A DNA stretch of 63,997 nt, the filler included, from Stramenopiles sp. TOSAG23-3 (lineage: Eukaryota), in the NCBI GenBank assembly GCA_900128585.1. It is 14 parts of 14 records of this genome, joined end to end, with 100 filler letters (N's around TTAATTAATTAA, not from the genome) between each part and the next. Parts side by side here need not be neighbours in the genome. Positions count along the whole stretch, not along the records: positions 50,665 to 55,164 come from LT643811.1; 13 more parts are not named here. The stretch is one strand, 5' to 3'. Within the stretch, counting starts at the first letter, position 1. The number at the start of each line of letters is the position of its first letter. A program made the translations under genes and the position numbers. A model generated the notes under the pieces. That model was not told where the DNA came from. It saw nothing but the letters and a program-made list of their open reading frames with translations, and ran no database searches. Shown piece by piece: positions 4,513-60,039 of the stretch.

Positions 4513-4612
4513 NNNNNNNNNNNNNNNNNNNNNNNNNNNNNNNNNNNNNNNNNNNNTTAATTAATTAANNNNNNNNNNNNNNNNNNNNNNNNNNNNNNNN
4601 NNNNNNNNNNNN
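4513..4612. other. Artificial contig linker N44-TTAATTAATTAA-N44; recurs at 9122, 13731, 18339, 22945, 27551, 32156, 36760, 41363, 45964, 50565, 55165 and 59764
   Basis: Identical 100-nt spacer carrying stops in all six frames; intervening contig lengths fall monotonically from 4509 to 4499. Confidence 0.99.
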
Positions 4613-9031: not shown

Positions 9032-9221
9032 AATGTCCGGTACAACGGAATTTAGTTTTTTCATTGAAAAAGTACTTGTGGAGATATTATAACGTCCAGT
9101 ATCATAGAAGAAGAAGAAGAANNNNNNNNNNNNNNNNNNNNNNNNNNNNNNNNNNNNNNNNNNNNTTAATTAATTAANNNNNNNNNNNNNNNNNNNNNNN
9201 NNNNNNNNNNNNNNNNNNNNN

Positions 9222-16166: not shown

Positions 16167-17144
16167 ATGACCAGTTTCCCCCCGAAACCAAAACCTCCTC
16201 ATAATGCTTTTATGTTGTTTTGTGATCGGTACCGCGAGGACGTAAAAGCGCAGATAATTGCCTCAAACAGCACATCGAACAAAAGGTCTATCGCACCTCC
16301 AAAAGATGTTGCTCGTCGTTTGGGTGAACGATGGCGGAGTGCTGAGAAAGGAAACAAAAAAGAATTTGTTGACCGTTTTAATGACGCATACACCAAGTAC
16401 AAGACAGAACTTCAGAAGTGGAAAAATAATAGAGAAGAAGCTTTCCCCTCTATACAGCGCAACAGATTTGAAAAAAACGCCAACAAAAAAAACCGTAGAT
16501 CTATCGATCCCAACAAACCAAAGCCTCCGCAGAACCCTTTCATGAGGTTCTGTAACAAGTATAGGGACACCGTGAGGGACCAAATTTTGGCAGAGAGCAC
16601 CGAGTCTCGTAAGGTTGCTCCGCCGAAAGAGGTTGCGAGGAGGCTAGGAGAACGCTGGAGAAATGCTGAAACATCTGAAAAATTAATTTTTCAGAATTCG
16701 TTTTCAGAGGAATATCATGTGTACCGGAAAGCTCTTGACCAGTACAAAAAGAAGAATCGCAATAGTATGCCACAGCTGGGAGTGCGCAAGCGAAATGATG
16801 AGTCAGACGACAAAATAGGTCGAGGTCGCAAAAAGCGTCCATACCGAACAGACCCGAATAAGCCAAGACCTCCGCACAACGCATTCATGCTATTCTGCGA
16901 CCGGTTTCGGGAAGATGTTAAAAAAGAAGTTTTAGATGAACAAAAAGGGAAGAATTGCAATCAAAGTGCAGTAGCTCCACCCAAAGAAGTTGCTCGGAGG
17001 CTCGGGAAGCGTTGGAGAGAGGCTGATCCTGATAAAAAACAGGAATTTTTGAATGCTTTCAAGTGTGAATACGACCGCTACAGAAAACGACTCATGGACT
17101 ACACAAAGTCTACGAGAGTGGCAATAAGCTCTGCCGCTTTTTAA
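16167..17144 (+). CDS. Protein with three HMG boxes
   Basis: Three copies of PK.P.NAFMLFC..YR..V.....PPKEVARRLGERWR. Confidence 0.93.
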   Translation: MTSFPPKPKPPHNAFMLFCDRYREDVKAQIIASNSTSNKRSIAPPKDVARRLGERWRSAEKGNKKEFVDRFNDAYTKYKTELQKWKNNREEAFPSIQRNRFEKNANKKNRRSIDPNKPKPPQNPFMRFCNKYRDTVRDQILAESTESRKVAPPKEVARRLGERWRNAETSEKLIFQNSFSEEYHVYRKALDQYKKKNRNSMPQLGVRKRNDESDDKIGRGRKKRPYRTDPNKPRPPHNAFMLFCDRFREDVKKEVLDEQKGKNCNQSAVAPPKEVARRLGKRWREADPDKKQEFLNAFKCEYDRYRKRLMDYTKSTRVAISSAAF

Positions 17145-28274: not shown

Positions 28275-28461
28275 TCTTCTTTTTTTCTTCTTCTTCTTCT
28301 TCTTCTTCTTCTTTCTTCTTTCTTCTTTCTTCTTTCTTCTTTCTTCTTTCTTCTTCTTCTTCTTCTTCTTCTTCTTCTNNNNNTCTTCTTCTTCTTCTTC
28401 TTCTTCTTCTTCTTCTTCTTCTTCTTCTTCTTCTTCTTCTTCTTCTTCTTCTTCTTTCTTC
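28275..28461. repeat. (TTC)n microsatellite with internal N gap
   Basis: Direct reading. Confidence 0.95.
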
Positions 28462-46633: not shown

Positions 46634-48997
46634 ATGGGAACGAATTTGACACAGAATGCCACAGAACCAGAGGAAATTTGCGAGCGTGGAGTTGAGGATT
46701 GTCAATGGGAGTTATTTGTGGAACGATTAGTTGATACAGAGTTTATTGGGGAAATATTCACTCAGTATATTAATTTAATTTTACTAGTTTATGTAGTAAT
46801 TGTTGTATATGCTGCCAGTCAATATTATTCAATCCCATATCATCTGTATGAGTGGCGTACTGCAAGCAAGAGAAAAACAATGCAGAAAGAAATGGTTGAA
46901 CTGAAGAAAGCTAGACGTGCTCGCCGTAATCTAAAACGGTTACAAAAGAATACGTCGTTACGTCTTAGACGAAGAAGAGAACGACCAAAGCGCTCTAAGG
47001 GAGGCGAGGAATATGTTTCTCTCGAACAGGACGAGGTTAAGGTAAGGGAAGACGACGAAAAACAACTTACTGTAACCGGAGACAATGTATTACTTGATGA
47101 AAATAACAAAGAGATATATCCACAATTTAAAGGTGTAAAGGAAGAATTGATTCAAGATGATAACAAAGCATTTGCCTTAAGCTATTCTGCATACGTGCTT
47201 TCTTTATTTATCGTTATGAGCGGTAGCCGAATTCCTAATGATCCAAATACCGACGATGAATTTGAAGTGTTAATAGATACATTTCTGTGGGGATTTTTTG
47301 GCGTTGCAATGTTAACAATCAACTGGTTGATACAAAGTAAAATTATGTTTCCTTCCGTTGATCATGTAAAAGAAACATTAAATGATAATTATTATGTTGC
47401 CATTGTAGAAAGTAGTTGTTTCATTGGAACTGCGTTGAATATTCGGGCAATACTAAGTGATTCACCCGCACGTAGCGCCGGAGAAGAAATTGGTGCAACA
47501 TTATTATTTTTCTCTTTAGGACAAATTTTAATGACGATCTTTGTAAAATGTTTTCTTAGAATAATACCGTACGATGAAAATGCAGAGGCAAAAAAAGGCA
47601 ACCCAGCTGCTGGCATCAGGATGGGTTCAAACATTGTTGCTTTAAGCTTTCTAGTGAGTAGCCCATTGAAAAAAACAGAGGAATTGGGGAGTTTGGTCAT
47701 GTATGTCCTTGGTTCATCTCTCTTTCTTCTTGGATTCACGACGTTATTAGATAAATTAATATTGCCAGGTGACACGAATGACGAAATTAGTAGAGATCAA
47801 AATTGGGGATTGGCATTTGTAAGTGGTGGTATAACCATGTCCGTTGCTGCCATGTTGGATACAATGCTGTTGGAACTACCATGCCCAGATACTGCTCAAT
47901 ATAGTCTTCTAGTTGAGACAATGGCAACAAAAGATACGTCGGATACTTCGTGTTATAAATGCACATTCAGGAGTCGATTACTAGCGAATGATTATTTGTG
48001 GACAATGTTTCACTGGTGGAACGTTGTGTATTTAATATTAATCGTGCTCTTTATGGTTTTGGCTCGATTTAATTTCGAGCTTAAATTCAATTTACTTTTC
48101 AAAGGGAAAAAAATTGAAGGATTAAAAAATCACAGAGAATGCCCAGGTACCCCGCATTTCCGAGAATACGACTATACGTTTGAAAAAGCTCTATCAGAAG
48201 ACGAGAATAAAGCACTGAGTATTTCTTTTGCGGGGTATATGGTTGGTACGGGTTTAATAACGTGGAGCTCGTTTTCAGATCTAAACCCATATGATGCAGG
48301 AATGAATATATTATATGTTATTTTGTGGCAAGTTTTCGGCGTTATCTTTTTAGAAACCGCGCGGGTAGCAAATGATAAAATTGCGTTGCACGAACTGAAT
48401 AACCGCGAAGAAATTATATTAAGAAGAAACATAGCCGTGGGGATCAGTGAATTTGGTGGATATGTTGGTGCCGGACAAATTGTGATGGGTGCAACTAGTG
48501 GGACGATGTCTTCATTTGGTGTTGATGTTGCTTGTGCCGTTTTATTCTTTGTCTTTGGCCACATCGGTTTTTTAATTCTTGATTACATTATGGTTACAAT
48601 TGACGATTTCGATTTCAATCATGAAATAAAAAAAGGAAATATAGCTATTGGGGTGTATTATGCATTGAATCATATTACCTTGGGCCAATTAATCGCAACT
48701 TGTATAACGAGAACAGACTCACTTTTAGCTTTCGTTTCATGGGTTGCATTTGGTGCATTGACAATAATTATTTTGCATATCGTCGTACAGAAAGTGTTAG
48801 TGCCAGGATTGAATATAAAAGAGGAAATTTTGGAACAACAAAATTGGGGCGCAGCTATGGTGTATGGTATGATACCATTAAGCGTCACTATATTCATTAA
48901 CACCTTTCTACCTTTCACATGTGAAAACGCTGTCTGGTATGAAGCTTCAGATTTCTATACATCAGCGAATTTTGATTTCGAATCTTGGGATGATTGA
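46634..48997 (+). CDS. Polytopic membrane protein with about 8 DUF350-like repeats in two duplicated halves
   Basis: Recurrent EE(I)..D/GN.A/W..... units between TM pairs: DDNKAFALSYSAY, NDNYYVAIVESS, KGNPAAGI, DQNWGLAF; then DENKALSISFAGY, RNIAVGISEFG, KGNIAIGV, QQNWGAAM. Confidence 0.75.
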   Translation: MGTNLTQNATEPEEICERGVEDCQWELFVERLVDTEFIGEIFTQYINLILLVYVVIVVYAASQYYSIPYHLYEWRTASKRKTMQKEMVELKKARRARRNLKRLQKNTSLRLRRRRERPKRSKGGEEYVSLEQDEVKVREDDEKQLTVTGDNVLLDENNKEIYPQFKGVKEELIQDDNKAFALSYSAYVLSLFIVMSGSRIPNDPNTDDEFEVLIDTFLWGFFGVAMLTINWLIQSKIMFPSVDHVKETLNDNYYVAIVESSCFIGTALNIRAILSDSPARSAGEEIGATLLFFSLGQILMTIFVKCFLRIIPYDENAEAKKGNPAAGIRMGSNIVALSFLVSSPLKKTEELGSLVMYVLGSSLFLLGFTTLLDKLILPGDTNDEISRDQNWGLAFVSGGITMSVAAMLDTMLLELPCPDTAQYSLLVETMATKDTSDTSCYKCTFRSRLLANDYLWTMFHWWNVVYLILIVLFMVLARFNFELKFNLLFKGKKIEGLKNHRECPGTPHFREYDYTFEKALSEDENKALSISFAGYMVGTGLITWSSFSDLNPYDAGMNILYVILWQVFGVIFLETARVANDKIALHELNNREEIILRRNIAVGISEFGGYVGAGQIVMGATSGTMSSFGVDVACAVLFFVFGHIGFLILDYIMVTIDDFDFNHEIKKGNIAIGVYYALNHITLGQLIATCITRTDSLLAFVSWVAFGALTIIILHIVVQKVLVPGLNIKEEILEQQNWGAAMVYGMIPLSVTIFINTFLPFTCENAVWYEASDFYTSANFDFESWDD

Positions 48998-50405: not shown

Positions 50406-50664
50406 ATAGTAGAAATTAGACGAAAATTCGATGTTTGGTATTATTATCCGTGACAGATGGACACTGACAAAATCCGAAAAAGCACAGTTTAAAAGAAATG
50501 AAAGTATTTTAACACAACGGGAGCATAGCTATAACCGGCATTAATGTATTGCAAGTTACATTAANNNNNNNNNNNNNNNNNNNNNNNNNNNNNNNNNNNN
50601 NNNNNNNNTTAATTAATTAANNNNNNNNNNNNNNNNNNNNNNNNNNNNNNNNNNNNNNNNNNNN

Positions 50665-53021
50665 GTCGTGATTGTATACGTTCCGTCTTTGAACGTTACA
50701 TTTTCGATTGGCACATTAAACCCAAGGACATCACACAACCAGTTCCATTGCGTTTGGTCTATCATCTTTCTCTGTTTGGCTAACCTTTGCACTTCTGTTG
50801 TCTTCACTTTCTTCCATGCTGCAAACGTTTGGGCCCATTGCGAACCACCAAGCTGTACTTTAATCACTGCCTGGCCCTTGAATTCAATGGTATACCGTTC
50901 GAGAACCGTGAAACCGTTTTCTTCAGTCACCTTGGTGTCTGACCGTTCCGTTCCTGATTGCAACGATGCTGACAATTTTACAATACCGAGCGCACCAACA
51001 TGGTTACCAACACCTTTGGCATTCCGAAGAACCATCTGACCGTTCTTGTCACGGTAATAAACATTTTCTTTCTCGTAATGGGAACCAGCAGTTATATTCT
51101 TATAGGTTAAGTCAACGTTGATGGACTTAGAATTCCCTGCTTGAGTTTGTTGGCCATTGAATCTGCCCCTTGTTGTACTGGTACGCTCACGAGAAACTTG
51201 GACTCCAACAGTCGCATTACCGTTGATGGACTTAGAATTCCCTGCTTGGGTTTGTTGGCCGTTGAATCTGCCACGAGAAACTTGGACTCCACGTTTGAGA
51301 CCTTCGTTGATCGCTGCCAAACCGAAGCATTGCATTGCTTCTTTTGGGTGACCATCTACCCAATTTTTCACGCCCGCAACTACGTTAGCGGAACTGGCAC
51401 TACCCATGCCTGTTGCTTTCTGGACTAAGCCTCCTAATTTTGCCGTAACATAAGATTTGGCCGCGTTCTTGACCACTACGTTTAGGTTCGTCTTGCCTTT
51501 ATGTGTAACATTGTCGACAAATGAAATTGCAAGCATCTGTGCAAATTCTAACGATTCATTAATTGCAAATTCTAACAATTCATTAATTGCGGGACTCTGT
51601 GCTAATTCTGGATCGAGATCAACACCCTCGATATTGTGACGTTCCCCGCCCCCATTATCACGCAGAAGTTGGCCCGCACGTATAATTTCGTCGAAAGCAT
51701 TCCCAATGATTGCAAGAAGACGAACATCCCGGGCAGCATCGGTTGGATTATACTCGTTCTCGGCAGCTTGGCGAGGGGGCACACTCGTTCTGCCCGGTGA
51801 AGGGGGTGCTCCCATTGCTTTCTTCGCTGTTGCTCCTGGCGGCGGAGGCGGCCCACTCGTTCTTCCCGGTGGAGGGGGTGCTCCCCTTGCCCTCTTCGCT
51901 GCTGCTCCTGGCGGCGGGGGCGGCCCACTCGTTCTTCCGCCTACACTGTGAGGGTGTGGTGGGGGCTGACCTTCATCCATACGTGATTCTACGTTTCCAA
52001 TAGCAGGGTAAGCACCGGCATCGTTGACGACGTCGTACTGCGACCCGAGAAAATTGTCCTTGGCATGTACAAGAAATGAACCCACATTTTGCAGTGCGTC
52101 CTGGACAAATGGGACGGAAGCGTCGAATCCTGCTTGGGCAAGTGAACCGGATCCCGCCCCCAAAACCCAGCATCGTCTACCACCAGTCCCGTCGGTATAG
52201 ATTAAGCAAAAGGCAGTGACACCAACCTGGGTTGCAGAGTTGAGCGCAGATCCTATCATCTCAGAAAGTTCCATGCTCTTGAAATCATCCTTGAAATGAT
52301 AAACCGCAGTAGCAAAATTTGCGTGCGCTCCGGTGAGCCGGGTCATTGCCTTGTGCCCAAGGAGCCGGATCGTTGCCTTTGGCCTCGGGAGCCAGGTCGA
52401 TTTTGCTTTTGGGAGACTTTGGAAAACGGTTAGTCTTCCGTTTGTCTGCTTCTTCCAATTATTTCCGTGGGTTTCTAGGTAAATCCGCTCCATTATGCGC
52501 CTGGAAAAGTCTTCACCTTTACGTCGTACGAGCTCTTCCTTGAACATTTGGATTGTCTTTGGGTCAAACTTGGATAGAGATTTTCCCACTTCCTTTAATG
52601 CTTGTTGTCGCGCCCGTATCATATCGTCGCGTAAAAATAGTCTTCCGTTTGTCTGCTTCCTCCAATTATTTCCGTGGGCTTCTAGGTGTTTCTTTGGAGT
52701 TAGAAACCTGATATTCCTCGCATCTCCCGCCTTTTCGGGGTTTTTGGCTTTGCTGTTGGTGTGATGTCCATGAAAAGTTCCTTTCACTTCACTGAATTTT
52801 CCCTCACGAAGCTTTTCCAGCTGCGACGTGGACCAATGCCTCGTTCCAGAGTCAGTTTCTCTAACTAGCTTACTTTCGGCTTCCCACGCACGGCGTATTC
52901 CTGTTGTAGCGACGCCTCTCTTATATGTGTGAATCTTCTCGGGTCGCGCTGTGATAGGCCTTTCTGCATCGACGATTTGCTGGACCAAACGTCTTGCAAT
53001 ATTTTGTCTTGCGTCAGTCAT
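50665..53021 (-). CDS. Large protein with N-terminal Tox-GHH (HNH/EndoVII) nuclease domain, Pro-rich repeats and beta-rich C-terminal part; 3' truncated
   Basis: IRRAWEAESKLVRE..SGTRHWS..QLEKL...FHGHHTNS...PEKAGDARNIRFLT.KKHLEAHGNNWRKQTNG; first ATG at 53021. Confidence 0.8.
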
Positions 53022-53960
53022 ATTATTATTGGTTTTGTATGTTGTAATGTTTTTGAATAGTTTTGGTTCGACAATTTTCGCTTTGTCTTCATTTCTATGA
53101 GTCGTTTCTTTAGTTTTAGCGAAAGACAAAGTAGACGAAAACTAGGTGTCCGTGTGTGCGAAGCGTCAAGGGTTAATACAATTACACCACAAGAATGTTT
53201 TTCCTTCTCTTCTCTTCTTCCATTCATCATCATCATCATCTTCTTTTTCTATACTATTCTCCTGTTGTTGTACTAGGGATTCAATAAATAAATTATTTCT
53301 GCCCGCCCATTATTATCTTATTAAGGCATTTTTAATCGACTAAGAATCTCAATTTATCCCCCTCCTCCACTTTATATTATAGGATTTATTTTATAGAAAC
53401 GCTCCTCATTTTATCCTTAATAATGTTGTCAGGTGACAAAATTCTACTACTTTGAATTCTTTGTTGTATCCCTGTAATAAACGTTTGTGCTGGCTCTGTT
53501 CACAAGCCGAATAATAATAGACTAGTCTAGTAATATCCGAGGCCCAATTGTTGAGCGCATTATATTACTGTAAGGCATTGTAATAGACTAAGAAATTACT
53601 ATTTCTTCCACCAACTACCTCCTCCTACCTACCCCCCCCACTTTAATTTAATAATATATACAATTTTTACAATACCTTCCTCATTTTTACATTGTTTCCT
53701 TAATAATTTTGTCATGTGACAAAATTCTTTTTCTACTATTTCCCTGTAAAAGGTAAAAGCCTTACAATTCATTTCTACATTTTTTTAGTAATGCTGTTTT
53801 GCTGCAAATAAATTAATCATCTTCGCTGTTTTAGTGTTGTTATTATTAGACTATAATAATTATTTTAGCAAAACGACGACGACGACGGACAACAAGAAGT
53901 GTGGTGCGTGGAAATCTACAAGTTCGAAGTATAACTAAAAACAACAAATACGAGGACGAA

Positions 53961-55164
53961 ATGGTAAACAGAAAAGTATTGTAGTATTAGCGAATCGAGT
54001 TCTAATAGCCACGCGCTTTAAAGAATAACTGCCGCTCCTTATAATAAAAACAGAATACTCTGATTCTTCGACGACTCATTCAAACGATTGCTTCTGCGAC
54101 TTGTTCGATGGCCAAGACACATGAGTACTTGACTGAGGTCTCGGCCGCAATTAATAGGGTTTGTCCTACCGAGACGTACCGGTATGTTGAAATAAAAGGC
54201 GCTTTTGATGATAAAAAGAAATTTGGCCAACATGTTAAGAGCTTGAAAAAGCATTTCAACGAGCGTTATACAACACTTAAAATATGGTATGAAAAGATTG
54301 TCAACGATTATATCAAAAATATGGAAGAAAACAAAAAAAAGAAAATAATAAAGCCGGAATATAATCCGAGCGAAGCACAAGGACCCAAACCAAAGAAACT
54401 TAAGGCCGCGTTTCAAGCCTTAAAAAAAGCTGAAGGAATTACACCCGAAAACGCAAAAGTTTGTATGGTATTGCCGGTAAATCCACACATACCAGATGAA
54501 AACGGGTACCAAGCTCGACAACCTTTCGGTGGGTTTGTTGTACTAACCGGGAAGGAATGCAAAGAAGAATCACTGAGTGAAAAGGAGGATTTTTTCTTTC
54601 TTCCACTGGGCGAATCTACACTCAAAGAAGAAGAGTACAAATTTGTCTCGGTAAAAGAGTTATTGGGTACATTCACTGGAAACTTTGTGAACTCTAACCA
54701 TATTCGTCTAGCCGAGAACAACCGGGGCACGAAAAAGATAAAACAAGCGGTGAAGATCTTTCTTGACAGAAATCTTGTAAAGATATGGCGAGACAATATC
54801 ACAGAGACTATCAGAGAAGATTTTCGGGTTTCTGTGGATATAGGCCAACTTCCAGACCCAAAGTGTAGCATTTGCATTTTTTGCGGAAAAACTTACGCCG
54901 ATAAAAAAGGGGGAAATGAAGTTTCTCAGGCTTTAAAGACCCACGTGGCAAAGCACTGTGGTCTTTCCCTTCATGGAAAACTACCATTTCGAACTTCAGG
55001 AAACACTCAAATCGACTCAAGTCGAAATAAGCAACGTATGATCTTCAATTCAATAGCTGCGATTGCTCCTGCTGTTGGTGAAAATAAAGCGGCGAGGCAA
55101 GACACGGTCGCACCAAAAACTCCACTCCATGTAACAGAAACGTTACCAAATCAAAAGCCGTGTG
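53961..55164 (+). CDS. Orphan protein with a C2H2-like motif; predicted ATG exon plus 90-nt intron 53964-54053; 3' truncated
   Basis: ATG|GTAAAC...AACAG| joins in frame with ORF 54108; CIFCGKTY...LKTHVAKHC. Confidence 0.65.
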
Positions 55165-55513
55165 NNNNNNNNNNNNNNNNNNNNNNNNNNNNNNNNNNNN
55201 NNNNNNNNTTAATTAATTAANNNNNNNNNNNNNNNNNNNNNNNNNNNNNNNNNNNNNNNNNNNNAGTGGGGAGGATATTACATTGAGTAAGAATTTGTTT
55301 TACTCAAATAAAAATATACTGAAGGCAAATGCCGTGCAAAGAGAACCTAGTGTGTGTTTTCTGGTAGTTTATTTTGAACGTGCGCACAATCTTGTTACTT
55401 TAAAGGTGACAGCGAAAGGTAGAACCGGTGCCGTCGTAGGAGAGCTTTACCGCGGTTTTCGTGTGTACAGCCAAGAACCTAAAGTAAGACCTCAGCCGAC
55501 GAAGAAAAGAAAA

Positions 55514-57883
55514 ATGTATGAAGCGAATGGGGAAGAATTGGTGGGATGGGTGGGGGGTGGATTTGTCAATAATAATCCTCCGGTAGACGTTGATTTTTTT
55601 GATTTTGATTTTAAAGACGCGGCTGGCACGGATGGTGTGAACTTCCCCGCCCCTTCCTCCCCGTCTCCCGTCCCCGTCTCCTCGGACAAAGCAGATAGGT
55701 TTATTGGGGTACCTTCGTTGCCAAACTGTTTCGTCGAGGAATTGCATGACAAAATTACTAATGTTGCGATTTCACAACTTCTGGGCAAAGATCGCCAATT
55801 CATTGGTTTGGTGGGGATGATAGGAGTTGGCAAAACTGCCGTGCTATCGCGCATAGCCAGGAACGAAACCATACTCAAAAACTTTTCTGGTGGAATTTAT
55901 TGGATGCGTGCTGGCTTTGATACATTAGATTCCTACCAGCGCGTGGTCGGGATAGGCAACATTTTGAAACAAGATATCAGCAACGAAATGAAAGACCCCA
56001 GGCGGGCCATGGAATCGCTGTTAACCTTGACGGGGAACAATGCCCTTGTGATTGTTGATGACGTATATTCCGCAGAGCAGGTACGTGCGATTGAAGTCGA
56101 AGTGGAACGGTTTCCCGGGACCAAATTGGTCTTTGGGACATGTTGCCCTGGGATCGTGAAAGAATTGGGAGCCTGCTCGCTTACTATTCCCCTGCCATCT
56201 ATGCAACATTCTGTCCAATTAATGTCTCGGCTCACAAAATCCACTCCAAACAAAGAGGAATCTGAACATATGAAGGCCCTGGTCACCTGCTTAGGCAACC
56301 TACCTCTGGCAATAGTGATCGCGTCACGAAGCTTTACTAGATTAATTGGCTACCAAGAAATATTGAGTGAATTCAAAAACCGGAGTTTGTTCGGTGTGGG
56401 AGCAAAATTAGAATATTTTTCGCGCGGGGTACAGAAAAAAATAAAACTGATCGATGCACCCTCTCGCATGTGCCTCTTTCTTTTGTCGGTGATTCCTCAC
56501 AGTCATAATCGTGCACTGGTGAATTCGAGGAAAGCTCTCGTGGATGAACATGGCAGTGTTATGGCTCTGATTACTTTTCAGCCGCCTTTTTTTGTTGTTC
56601 CATTGCCTTTGCTGGAGCGCATTTGGAATGTCGATCAAACAGAAATGAAACTTTCTGCTCAAGGGTTGATTGACGCTGGATTTTTGCTCTTAGGCGATGG
56701 CAATGAAGCCGTAACGTCCGTTCGAGTGCATTCTTTACTATTACGATATTTGGATGTTGCAGCGGGGGGGCATGAAGAAATTTACGACCGATTAGCGCCG
56801 TCTATTAACTCGCATGTACAAATTTCAACAAACAGTGTGGAAGAACCGCAAATGCTATTTAGCATGTGTGACTTGTATTTTAACGCACCGAAAGAACATC
56901 TAGTCCAACTGTACAATGTAATAATGCAATCTGCGGCTTCTCCAAATTTTTTAGTGGAATTCAAAGCTCGCAAGAAAGATTTGCCAGACCTGATGCTGTC
57001 TGCAACCAGGTCGCTTCAGCCTGCGGCAGCGCATGTTACTGGCGTTGCCAATGCCATTCGGGAAATGAAAGCAAAAGTTGCACTGAAGCATTTGATGGCA
57101 CGCGAAGCAAAACAAACAGACGCTCCGAAATGGCTGTTTCACACAGAACTGTTGGCTGCGATGGAAAAAACTGTAGATGATTACTACAACGCAATACTCC
57201 ATGCCACGATTGATTGCAACGAGTTTAAGAAAAAGGACCTCAACGAACGAGTATACAATACTGAGAAGGCGTTCACTTATCTCACTGACCTTGTCAACTT
57301 TGGGTGGCAAGCTACTGCGTACAGCATGGCTCCGGTGCAGGTGCTGGTGCGCGTTGATGAAATGTTAGGGTATGTCCGCTCACGAAAGTATGATCATAAC
57401 GGTAGGTTGGTACTTGGATTTATGCCTGTCGACCCCGAGGTCCGAACTGGATCGAACTGTAAAACAGAAGACATGATGCAGTGGTGGTGGATGTTGCAAC
57501 ATGCATACCTATTTGACCAAAACTGCAGGGAAAATGGGATGTGCTTTCTTAGTAGCGTTAGCGCAATGAAACAGACGCTTCAACACCCTCTCGTTTTATC
57601 CAACCCGATGGAAATCCGTATTGTAATGGATCGTTTGCAAGGGATGCTGTTTCTGCGGGAACAGTCTGCTTCTAAATTCTACTTGTGCGCAGAGGGATCA
57701 CCGGATGGCATATTTTATGAATCCGTCAGTATTCTATTTGATCGTCTGTTTAACGATATAAACTTTTGTTTCATCCGCAATGAATCGGTCTTTCAAAACA
57801 TGTGTCAAACCTATTTTTCGGAAGATGATGTTGCTCGCGATGAGTTTTGGAGAAGTGCTTACGTAAACTTGAAAAAGACATGA
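55514..57883 (+). CDS. NB-ARC (APAF-1/NLR-type STAND NTPase) protein
   Basis: Walker A GMIGVGKT, F.GGIYW, Walker B LVIVDDV, GNLPLAI, LERIW, MHD-equivalent VHSLL. Confidence 0.85.
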   Translation: MYEANGEELVGWVGGGFVNNNPPVDVDFFDFDFKDAAGTDGVNFPAPSSPSPVPVSSDKADRFIGVPSLPNCFVEELHDKITNVAISQLLGKDRQFIGLVGMIGVGKTAVLSRIARNETILKNFSGGIYWMRAGFDTLDSYQRVVGIGNILKQDISNEMKDPRRAMESLLTLTGNNALVIVDDVYSAEQVRAIEVEVERFPGTKLVFGTCCPGIVKELGACSLTIPLPSMQHSVQLMSRLTKSTPNKEESEHMKALVTCLGNLPLAIVIASRSFTRLIGYQEILSEFKNRSLFGVGAKLEYFSRGVQKKIKLIDAPSRMCLFLLSVIPHSHNRALVNSRKALVDEHGSVMALITFQPPFFVVPLPLLERIWNVDQTEMKLSAQGLIDAGFLLLGDGNEAVTSVRVHSLLLRYLDVAAGGHEEIYDRLAPSINSHVQISTNSVEEPQMLFSMCDLYFNAPKEHLVQLYNVIMQSAASPNFLVEFKARKKDLPDLMLSATRSLQPAAAHVTGVANAIREMKAKVALKHLMAREAKQTDAPKWLFHTELLAAMEKTVDDYYNAILHATIDCNEFKKKDLNERVYNTEKAFTYLTDLVNFGWQATAYSMAPVQVLVRVDEMLGYVRSRKYDHNGRLVLGFMPVDPEVRTGSNCKTEDMMQWWWMLQHAYLFDQNCRENGMCFLSSVSAMKQTLQHPLVLSNPMEIRIVMDRLQGMLFLREQSASKFYLCAEGSPDGIFYESVSILFDRLFNDINFCFIRNESVFQNMCQTYFSEDDVARDEFWRSAYVNLKKT

Positions 57884-59259: not shown

Positions 59260-60039
59260 AAGGAAGGTGGGTACCAGTTCATGAATTTCTATTTTTTTGT
59301 GGGTATATACATATGCCTGGGTGTGTGTTTATTAAACTGCCTGTAAACGTCCTATTTTTTTCTTCTTCAATTTAATGGGGTCGGTGGGTGGTTGTTTTTC
59401 TTCTTCTACCTCCTTGGTTCTTCTTCTTCTACTTTTTTTTTCCCTCTTCTTCTTCCTTTTTTTCGTTCTTCTTCTTCTCGCGCATTTTTTTTTTAAAGCA
59501 TGTATTATTTGTACTGTGTTGATAGAGTATAAATGTACTGAAAATTCAGTTATTTTAGATTTTGCGTTGCTGTGTAATGTAATAAAAACACAAGAATAAG
59601 CCCAAAAAATCATTTTGCAACATACTTGTAACGACCGAAATAGTATTCTAAGAACATTTAATTATTAGTCTAGTTTCCGAACATTTTTCCCCCTTCGTGT
59701 TCACGTACGACTACTAATAAATCACTAAAAGGAGCAACTTCTGGTGTGATTGATTAAAATAATNNNNNNNNNNNNNNNNNNNNNNNNNNNNNNNNNNNNN
59801 NNNNNNNTTAATTAATTAANNNNNNNNNNNNNNNNNNNNNNNNNNNNNNNNNNNNNNNNNNNNCGTTTTATTTTCCAAAACCTGATGGACGCGCAGTCTT
59901 CTATTGTTTCCTAAAATACATAAACACAGCATAGAATACCCAGTCTGCGTAACAATCGTTTCTTTCAAAATGCCACCCGTTCCGTTATAACGGTACAAAA
60001 CGTCACGAACTACCCGTTTACACAAACAGATATACAAGA

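Follow-up and report, generated by a model that had tools for sequence, protein, structure and literature searches.

We describe here an open reading frame (ORF) from Stramenopiles sp. TOSAG23-3 (assembly GCA_900128585.1) whose predicted product of at least 785 residues carries a Tox-GHH nuclease domain at its N-terminus. The ORF lies on the minus strand of contig LT643811.1, which occupies positions 50,665 to 55,164 of the window, that is, of the whole 63,997-base stretch of DNA that was analyzed. The N-terminal domain is confirmed as a genuine member of the Tox-GHH HNH/EndoVII family, far beyond chance. On balance, and with only modest confidence, we regard the ORF as a gene specific to the lineage of a marine eukaryote not yet in culture, which would have acquired a bacterial-type Tox-GHH domain horizontally and independently of the teneurins, and whose product would be a conflict or cell-death effector controlled by its own C-terminal part.

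Identification of a Tox-GHH domain

The features that carry this assignment are the following.

50665..53021, minus strand: ORF of 785 residues from the first in-frame ATG (53021), open to the contig end (translation)
52629..52910, minus strand: Tox-GHH HNH/EndoVII nuclease domain, residues ~38-131 (Pfam, phmmer relatives, AlphaFold, Foldseek)
52761..52769, minus strand: G85-H86-H87 motif (alignment of 149 relatives)

A preliminary description of this DNA, made from the sequence alone, had pointed to a Tox-GHH motif string with its GHH triplet at 52769-52761 and an intact distal histidine. Translation of the minus-strand ORF places the triplet at residues 85-87, and the C-terminal HxxxH helix of the domain is indeed intact, with H112 and H116 both kept. 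The HMMER comparison proposed at the time gave a clear answer: Pfam PF15636 (Tox-GHH) matches the ORF with an E-value of 6.1e-9 and 36.1 bits against a gathering cutoff of 25, over profile positions 13-77 of 78. When residues 1-350 were searched with phmmer against 1.84 billion representative proteins, 906 relatives were found at E<=1e-3 and 161 at E<=1e-10, and the closest non-self relatives among the best of these 906 matches share 44-51% identity over ~90 residues, corresponding to the domain only. Tox-GHH was present in all 30 relatives that were scanned, accompanied in 7 of them by RHS repeats or PT-HINT. Other collections added little, PHROGs giving two weak generic HNH rows (E-values of 0.005 and 0.076), and NCBIfam and PADLOC chance-level rows only. 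Gp10_C also matched the C-terminal part, but at E 0.059 and with 14.7 bits where the cutoff is 27, we regard this as a chance match.

The structural prediction that had been suggested for the domain also came out as expected. In the AlphaFold model, based on an alignment of 75 rows, residues 40-160 have a pLDDT above 90, and an HNH/EndoVII-type core is formed by strands 84-87 and 104-107 and helix 109-115. Superimposition by Foldseek on the PDB ranked teneurin Tox-GHH domains 1 to 12 (probability 1.00, rmsd 1.9-2.8 A over 83-91 columns, with weak E-values of 0.03-0.14); the next matches were the HNH domains of colicin E7 and E2, pyocin S2 and Cap5. As modeled, the domain has the beta-beta-alpha-metal fold expected of Tox-GHH.

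Tallies of residues, as well as those of domain position given below, refer to the 149 best non-self relatives among the 906 phmmer matches. H87 is invariant (149/149), while position 86 is occupied by H in 133 relatives and by Q in 16. At 18 of the 19 tallied columns the query keeps the commonest residue of the family (A45, W46, E49, G59, R61, W63, G85, H86, H87, N103, I104, F106, H112, H116, G117, W120, T124 and G126). By analogy with colicin-type HNH enzymes, H87 would presumably be the general base and H86, H112 and H116 the metal ligands. The Tox-GHH signature, as given by Zhang et al. (2012), consists of WxxE, W, G[HQ]H, NIxF and [DE]H. All these elements are kept but one, the acidic residue preceding H112, which is replaced by K111. 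The domain is thus intact in its catalytic histidines and C-terminal helix but departs from the [DE]H element.

The phmmer search returned a single near-identical match, P0001, a 97-residue fragment translated from a 570-nt ENA contig. It reproduces residues 1-93 of the ORF exactly, and its last four residues diverge. An independent seawater DNA run contains an identical 568-nt contig over 52552-53119, which agrees with the window version through residue 157; the diverging end of P0001 could reflect either a variant or an error of assembly. Since this fragment is its only entry in a collection of 15 billion proteins, the GHH protein has probably never been examined before.

Relationship with bacterial toxins, teneurins and eukaryotic nucleases

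Bacterial polymorphic toxins carried by RHS/YD, LXG or PT-HINT proteins belong to the same domain family as the query and have the same predicted fold. However, their domain usually forms the C-terminal end of a long protein that serves for delivery, whereas that of the query is N-terminal, and they have an immunity gene alongside, whereas none is found on the query contig. The query also differs from them by its apparently eukaryotic setting and by K111 at the [DE]H position. No second Pfam family was detected above threshold in the ORF, be it RHS, LXG, PAAR, filamentous haemagglutinin or any other delivery or repeat module.

The preliminary description had presented the architecture as new. 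The N-terminal position itself is already known: of the 149 relatives, some of which are metagenome fragments, 87 have the domain at the C-terminus, 39 at the N-terminus and 12 at an internal position, and in 11 it makes up a whole short protein. As far as the sequences indicate, the novelty of the query is its fusion partner and not the location of its domain.

The N-terminal GHH group contains a coherent family of proteins of ~300 residues that start with MSRRT and whose domain begins at residue ~7. This family was confirmed at 83 of 129 candidate stretches in prokaryotic species genomes, mostly from gut Clostridia with some Adlercreutzia and Schaalia. At all 41 bacterial loci checked, an ORF on the same strand ends just ahead of the GHH gene, and in each of the 20 that were scanned this ORF encodes a SUKH-1 (SMI1_KNR4) protein of ~141 residues. 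Zhang et al. describe SUKH as an immunity family tied to Tox-GHH. These SUKH-GHH modules of gut Bacillota and Actinomycetota resemble the query in the start of the domain, which falls among the first ~10-40 residues, in the variable C-terminal part of low complexity that comes after it, and in the lack of a signal peptide or known carrier domain. On the other hand, their GHH proteins measure ~300 residues against at least 785 for the query, whose C-terminal part is unrelated, and the domain tree does not group the query with this family at any support. The SUKH-GHH pair of locus L048 (L048:5550-6924) is flanked by housekeeping genes. A separate set of relatives, P0003, P0023 (from Natroniella acetigena), P0024 and P0050, consists of proteins of ~360 residues with an N-terminal leader, the Tox-GHH domain and a long Gly-rich, multi-helix hydrophobic tail, which from its sequence looks like a family of membrane-anchored nucleases.

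In the literature consulted, only one eukaryotic Tox-GHH is described, that of teneurin, which is catalytically dead, having lost the histidines and the C-terminal helix. Teneurins (Odz), found in metazoa and choanoflagellates, provide the best structural matches to the query model, and their sequence aligns with it over residues 40-109. Nevertheless, the teneurin domain is extracellular and terminates a YD-shell receptor, whereas the query domain is N-terminal and keeps its active-site residues, and no RHS/YD, EGF or NHL match was found in the ORF with Pfam. The query scores only ~14 bits with teneurin chains (E 0.07-0.1), compared with 60-78 bits with bacterial relatives. Given these far higher scores to bacterial forms, and the histidines and C-terminal helix that are kept, the query is not a teneurin offshoot, and the acquisition apart from teneurins that had been put forward is supported at the sequence level. 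The phylogeny that had been called for gave no supported placement: in a tree of the domain, from which teneurins were absent, the query sits on a branch of 1.87 against a median of 0.56 and has no supported sister.

A parallel can also be drawn with DFF40/CAD (HNH-CIDE) and with Crinkler (CR) effectors carrying an HNH domain such as AeCRN13, which illustrate the same concept of an HNH-fold nuclease with bacterial-toxin ancestry used as a eukaryotic cell-death or attack effector. By their descriptions these nucleases belong to other HNH clades and have a CIDE-N or Crinkler header in front of a toxin domain located at the C-terminus; Pfam detected neither header in the ORF.

The region following the domain

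Downstream of the domain, the ORF can be divided as follows.

52431..52480, minus strand: second copy of the HGNNW(R/K)KQTNGRL stretch, 96% identical in DNA to 52638-52687
51987..52271, minus strand: Gly/Ala/Val-rich, moderately hydrophobic segment, residues ~251-345 (composition, hydropathy)
51762..51986, minus strand: Pro-rich segment (25% Pro), residues ~346-420 (composition, repeat search)
51297..51761, minus strand: predicted helical region, residues ~421-575 (very-low-confidence model), with a 24-nt tandem duplication at 51540-51590
50665..51296, minus strand: Gly/Gln/Asn/Ser-rich imperfect 35-residue repeat, then a strand-containing tail (repeat search, very-low-confidence model)

The ORF stops at 50665 where the contig ends, and the C-terminus of the protein is therefore missing. 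The succession of segments that had been read from the sequence is largely recovered. By inspection only, the protein lacks a signal peptide, as had been stated, and its N-terminus is a charged helix. Helices come directly after the domain and include the second HGNNW copy; the duplicated stretch is part of the last helix of the domain and does not include the GHH strands. The Gly/Ala segment described earlier as hydrophobic is present, but its hydrophobicity is only moderate: the highest Kyte-Doolittle mean over 19 residues is 1.31, and no clear membrane helix emerges. A kinship of this segment with the Gly-rich membrane tail of P0003 and P0023 was considered and rejected, as no similarity was found and only the HGNNW duplicate aligns. 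The Pro-rich linker is there as announced and harbors 2.3 copies of an in-frame 72-nt unit (51773-51938) encoding GRTSGPPPPPGA.AK.A.GAPP.P. Helical and beta-rich regions are predicted in the order that had been given, but the model of this part has very low confidence (pLDDT 35). Copies of 52 nt from the 35-residue repeat, at 51116 and 51221, are 96% identical. All internal duplications have lengths that are multiples of 3 (72, 24, 105 and 207 nt), which implies that the reading frame has been preserved through recent slippage.

No relative of the whole protein or of residues 440-785 was found by a word-based search of 5.8e9 clusters, restricted to proteins of 431-1374 residues, and no family was found for the part following the domain in Pfam, NCBIfam, PADLOC or PHROGs.

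Origin of the contig

The preliminary description had considered the contig eukaryotic. Its setting, its composition and RNA matches make this likely, but the evidence is indirect and weaker than had been claimed, as it concerns a contig of only 4.5 kb. Regarding the setting, 21 long ORFs were scanned on the other 13 contigs; 13 of them contain Pfam domains typical of eukaryotes, among them gamma-tubulin complex protein, CPSF73, SLBP, HMG box and TNFR repeats, and 5 are unmatched. Seven of ten proteins from these contigs occur in a public collection, and eukprot is a source in three of the seven corresponding clusters. CPSF73 has as best named relatives stramenopiles (50-52% identity), closely followed by animals (49-50%), and it is 57-72% identical to unnamed marine sequences, which points to an organism without close named relative. 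Judged from this one housekeeping protein, encoded on another contig, the stramenopile affinity of the host is weak.

As for composition, the GC content of the GHH contig (0.46 in coding and 0.33 in non-ORF DNA) falls inside the ranges of the 13 others (0.37-0.59 and 0.29-0.40). No Shine-Dalgarno-like sequence precedes either ATG of the contig. Scans with near-identical peptide patterns of the GHH protein, which covered IMG/VR and 185,579 prokaryotic species genomes, gave no close relative.

Expression is suggested by several sequencing runs. An oligo-dT RNA run contains two contigs of 151 nt that match the GHH region with zero differences (52661-52811 and 52862-53012), a metatranscriptome run contains an identical 192-nt contig at 51497-51688, and the neighboring gene is covered in two RNA-labelled runs. 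Between 20% and 58% of the words of the contig occur in eleven marine DNA runs from six studies. The four sequencing runs examined for identical contigs give no cover at 50665-51264, 52015-52464 and 53965-54264 and are not informative on presence there. The GHH gene is open, rapidly changing and probably transcribed.

The divergent ORF and the remainder of the window

Upstream of the GHH gene, the contig contains a spacer and a second, divergent ORF, and it is separated from unrelated DNA by an artificial linker on each side.

53022..54107, no strand: spacer of 1.1 kb between the divergent ORFs, GC 0.33 (microsatellites, 58-nt direct repeat)
54108..55164, plus strand: divergent ORF of 352 residues, cut by the contig end, of no family, with a zinc-finger-like motif below threshold
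50565..50664, no strand: artificial linker N44-TTAATTAATTAA-N44, separating the GHH contig from the preceding, unrelated one; its counterpart lies at 55165-55264

The AT-rich microsatellite spacer noted in the preliminary description is real. It contains a 58-nt direct repeat (53407-53464 and 53690-53747, 78% identity), each copy of which is centered on a palindrome, TTGTCA(G/T)GTGACAA (53426 and 53709). The palindrome gives four matches (two sites on both strands) where 0.06 are expected, and from its sequence and placement it may be a shared regulatory site. Sigma-70-like sites are not enriched in comparison with shuffled sequences (6 against 7.0 expected).

The divergent ORF encodes a zinc-finger-like C-x2-C...H-x3-H motif, for which Pfam zf-C2H2_4 gives an E-value of 0.04, below threshold; feature-based leads to zf-BED (scores 0.79-0.80) are below the counting level as well. 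For this ORF no ESM Atlas score reached 0.9, no relatives were detected, and no SUKH match was obtained at E<=1. The spliceosomal intron that had been predicted in this gene is not supported: the frame is uninterrupted over 54108-55164 and the four sequencing runs show no joints.

The window as a whole is made of 14 unrelated contigs of ~4.5 kb, sorted by size from 4512 down to 4499 bases, the last ending with the window. They are joined by 13 artificial N44-TTAATTAATTAA-N44 linkers (4513-4612, 9122-9221, ... 59764-59863); an additional gap of 5 N at 28379-28383 is separate from these. As the contigs are merely chained, the genomic context of the GHH gene is limited to 50665-55164, and any reasoning on neighbors across the linkers is invalid. 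No paralogue of the GHH gene, no tRNA gene and no Rfam family was found in the window. Three ORFs on other contigs deserve mention. At 16167-17144, two HMG boxes are oddly paired with a C-terminal stretch matching the bacterial MlaC family (E 3.5e-9). A 787-residue ORF at 46634-48997 contains DUF350, a membrane domain found mainly in bacteria, in four copies, and has the lowest GC at third codon positions (GC3) of the window, 0.32. On the contig that follows the GHH contig, an 866-residue ORF (55283-57883) has an NB-ARC domain and is unlinked to the GHH gene.

Proposed function and alternative explanations

We propose that a bacterial-type Tox-GHH domain would have been gained by horizontal transfer, separately from the teneurin lineage, and fused, as the first ~130 residues, upstream of a fast-evolving, repeat-rich region without relatives. 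By analogy with what is thought of its bacterial relatives, the domain would bind a divalent metal through the GHH and HxxxH histidines and cleave DNA non-specifically. Lacking a signal peptide, it would be made in the cytoplasm and would function within the cell that produces it, or in a compartment reached after translation, possibly as a conflict effector in defence, regulated cell death or attack. As no SUKH partner is in sight, another restraint would be needed, which could be the C-terminal part of the protein itself, a distant immunity gene or a tight control of expression. The first of these would mean that the Gly/Ala hydrophobic stretch, the proline repeats and the Q/N/G-rich repeats control, tether or target the nuclease, in replacement of the SUKH immunity protein. 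The roles in prey killing, antiviral suicide or conflict imagined in the preliminary description stay conjecture, as the analysis revealed neither an immunity gene nor a delivery signal or a paralogue.

A more specific and quite improbable version is that the protein would be a self-executioner of the protist: an active cytoplasmic GHH DNase with no separate immunity protein, restrained by its C-terminal part and released by infection or stress. The hydrophobic segment could then be a tether, the proline-rich repeats could bind adaptors, and the Q/N/G-rich repeats could drive a regulated assembly. Such a protein would be the counterpart, in a protist, of CAD/DFF40 or of the fungal and bacterial effectors that combine a killing domain with an assembly motif, and would have arisen independently of animals.

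Several observations weigh against a eukaryotic, nuclease-active effector. Concerning the gene in its host, the 4.5-kb contig has no physical link to a eukaryotic chromosome, and its codon usage cannot assign it (across the contigs of the window, relative synonymous codon usage correlates with that of the GHH ORF at values between 0.0 and 0.56). The RNA matches have little length and depth (~2), DNA can be present in RNA libraries, and no piece joining the GHH domain to the C-terminal part is listed in the four sequencing runs. Three small runs that contain 87-98% of the contig words may be the contig's own source. In addition, near-identical peptide patterns of the GHH gene and its neighbor are missing from JGI metagenome contigs, whereas housekeeping genes of the same organism are represented in them, on contigs as long as 33 kb. 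Concerning the protein, the AlphaFold prediction for residues 421-785, obtained from the single sequence, is uninformative. A profile built from the 41 SUKH ORFs and compared with the six frames of the window gave a best E-value of 3.6 and nothing on the contig, although a SUKH gene could lie elsewhere in the genome, the contig being only 4.5 kb long. Finally, K111 stands where 135 of the 149 relatives have an acidic residue (130 E, 5 D), and the Pfam score of the query is low compared with the family, where the 30 relatives scanned reach 38-89 bits; together with the very long branch, these features would also fit a relaxed or changed function.

It could thus be that the gene is eukaryotic but that its GHH domain no longer cuts, having been repurposed, as in teneurins, into a nucleic-acid- or protein-binding module of a protein with a structural or signalling role. 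The features just cited speak for it, and a harmless domain would need no immunity gene; moreover, the only known eukaryotic Tox-GHH, that of teneurin, provides a precedent for inactivity. Yet the GHH and HxxxH histidines, the asparagine of NIxF and the WxxE/W scaffold, which teneurins lost, are all kept, and an acidic residue at position 111 is not strictly required, given that relatives have Q (9), N (1), G (1) or K (1) there. We consider this explanation unlikely, if the least unlikely of the alternatives. Hardly more improbable would be that both divergent genes lie in a part of a eukaryotic genome that is variable or mobile, where the nuclease would serve a selfish element of the addiction or homing type, with the zinc-finger-like neighbor as a DNA-binding or transposase-derived partner. 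Both genes are orphans, both are missing from the JGI contigs though the organism is represented there, and the partial presence of the contig in marine DNA runs and the weak zinc-finger and zf-BED leads of the neighbor would agree with such an element; toxin-derived selfish genes of free-living eukaryotes are described in PMC12957317. However, the window showed neither terminal repeats nor a transposase, an integrase or a second copy, the boundaries of an element cannot be judged on a contig that lacks both its ends, and a partial presence in metagenomes is expected anyway for a low-coverage, repeat-rich locus.

On the other hand, the contig might not be eukaryotic at all but derive from a bacterium taken as prey, from a symbiont, from a giant virus or from something else living alongside, whose DNA was assembled or binned with the eukaryotic contigs, and encode an ordinary microbial GHH toxin. 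The Tox-GHH family is overwhelmingly bacterial, the assembly is fragmentary, GC3 varies from 0.32 to 0.78 across the window, the GHH contig has no gene of a known eukaryotic family, and the absence of its two genes from the JGI contigs, where the housekeeping genes are present, would be explained. Against this stand the lack of any relative in the prokaryotic and IMG/VR searches with near-identical peptide patterns, the identity of at most 51% to the best relatives over the domain only, the AT-rich microsatellite spacer without Shine-Dalgarno-like sequence, the lack of the adjoining SUKH gene that all 20 scanned bacterial modules possess, a composition like that of the eukaryotic contigs, and the identical contigs in an oligo-dT-selected RNA library. 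We therefore judge a non-eukaryotic origin of this kind to be rather improbable, more so than an inactive domain or a selfish element, and keep the conflict or cell-death effector of a marine eukaryote as our preferred explanation.

The recruitment of bacterial toxin domains by eukaryotes is a known theme, represented by teneurin, DFF40/CAD and the Crinkler HNH effectors. Among 50 papers mentioning Tox-GHH in the literature searched, a teneurin review is the only one to mention protists as well. The significance of the present finding is moderate, limited by the truncated gene and the unproven provenance of its 4.5-kb contig. If our proposal is true, a eukaryote outside the animals would have gained Tox-GHH a second time and independently, in an apparently active form and joined to a new fusion partner. 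It would also be a further clear case of a eukaryote adopting an interbacterial weapon, in a group of marine plankton that is abundant and uncultured. One would then wonder how such a cell withstands a non-specific DNase in its cytoplasm when the customary immunity protein is lacking.

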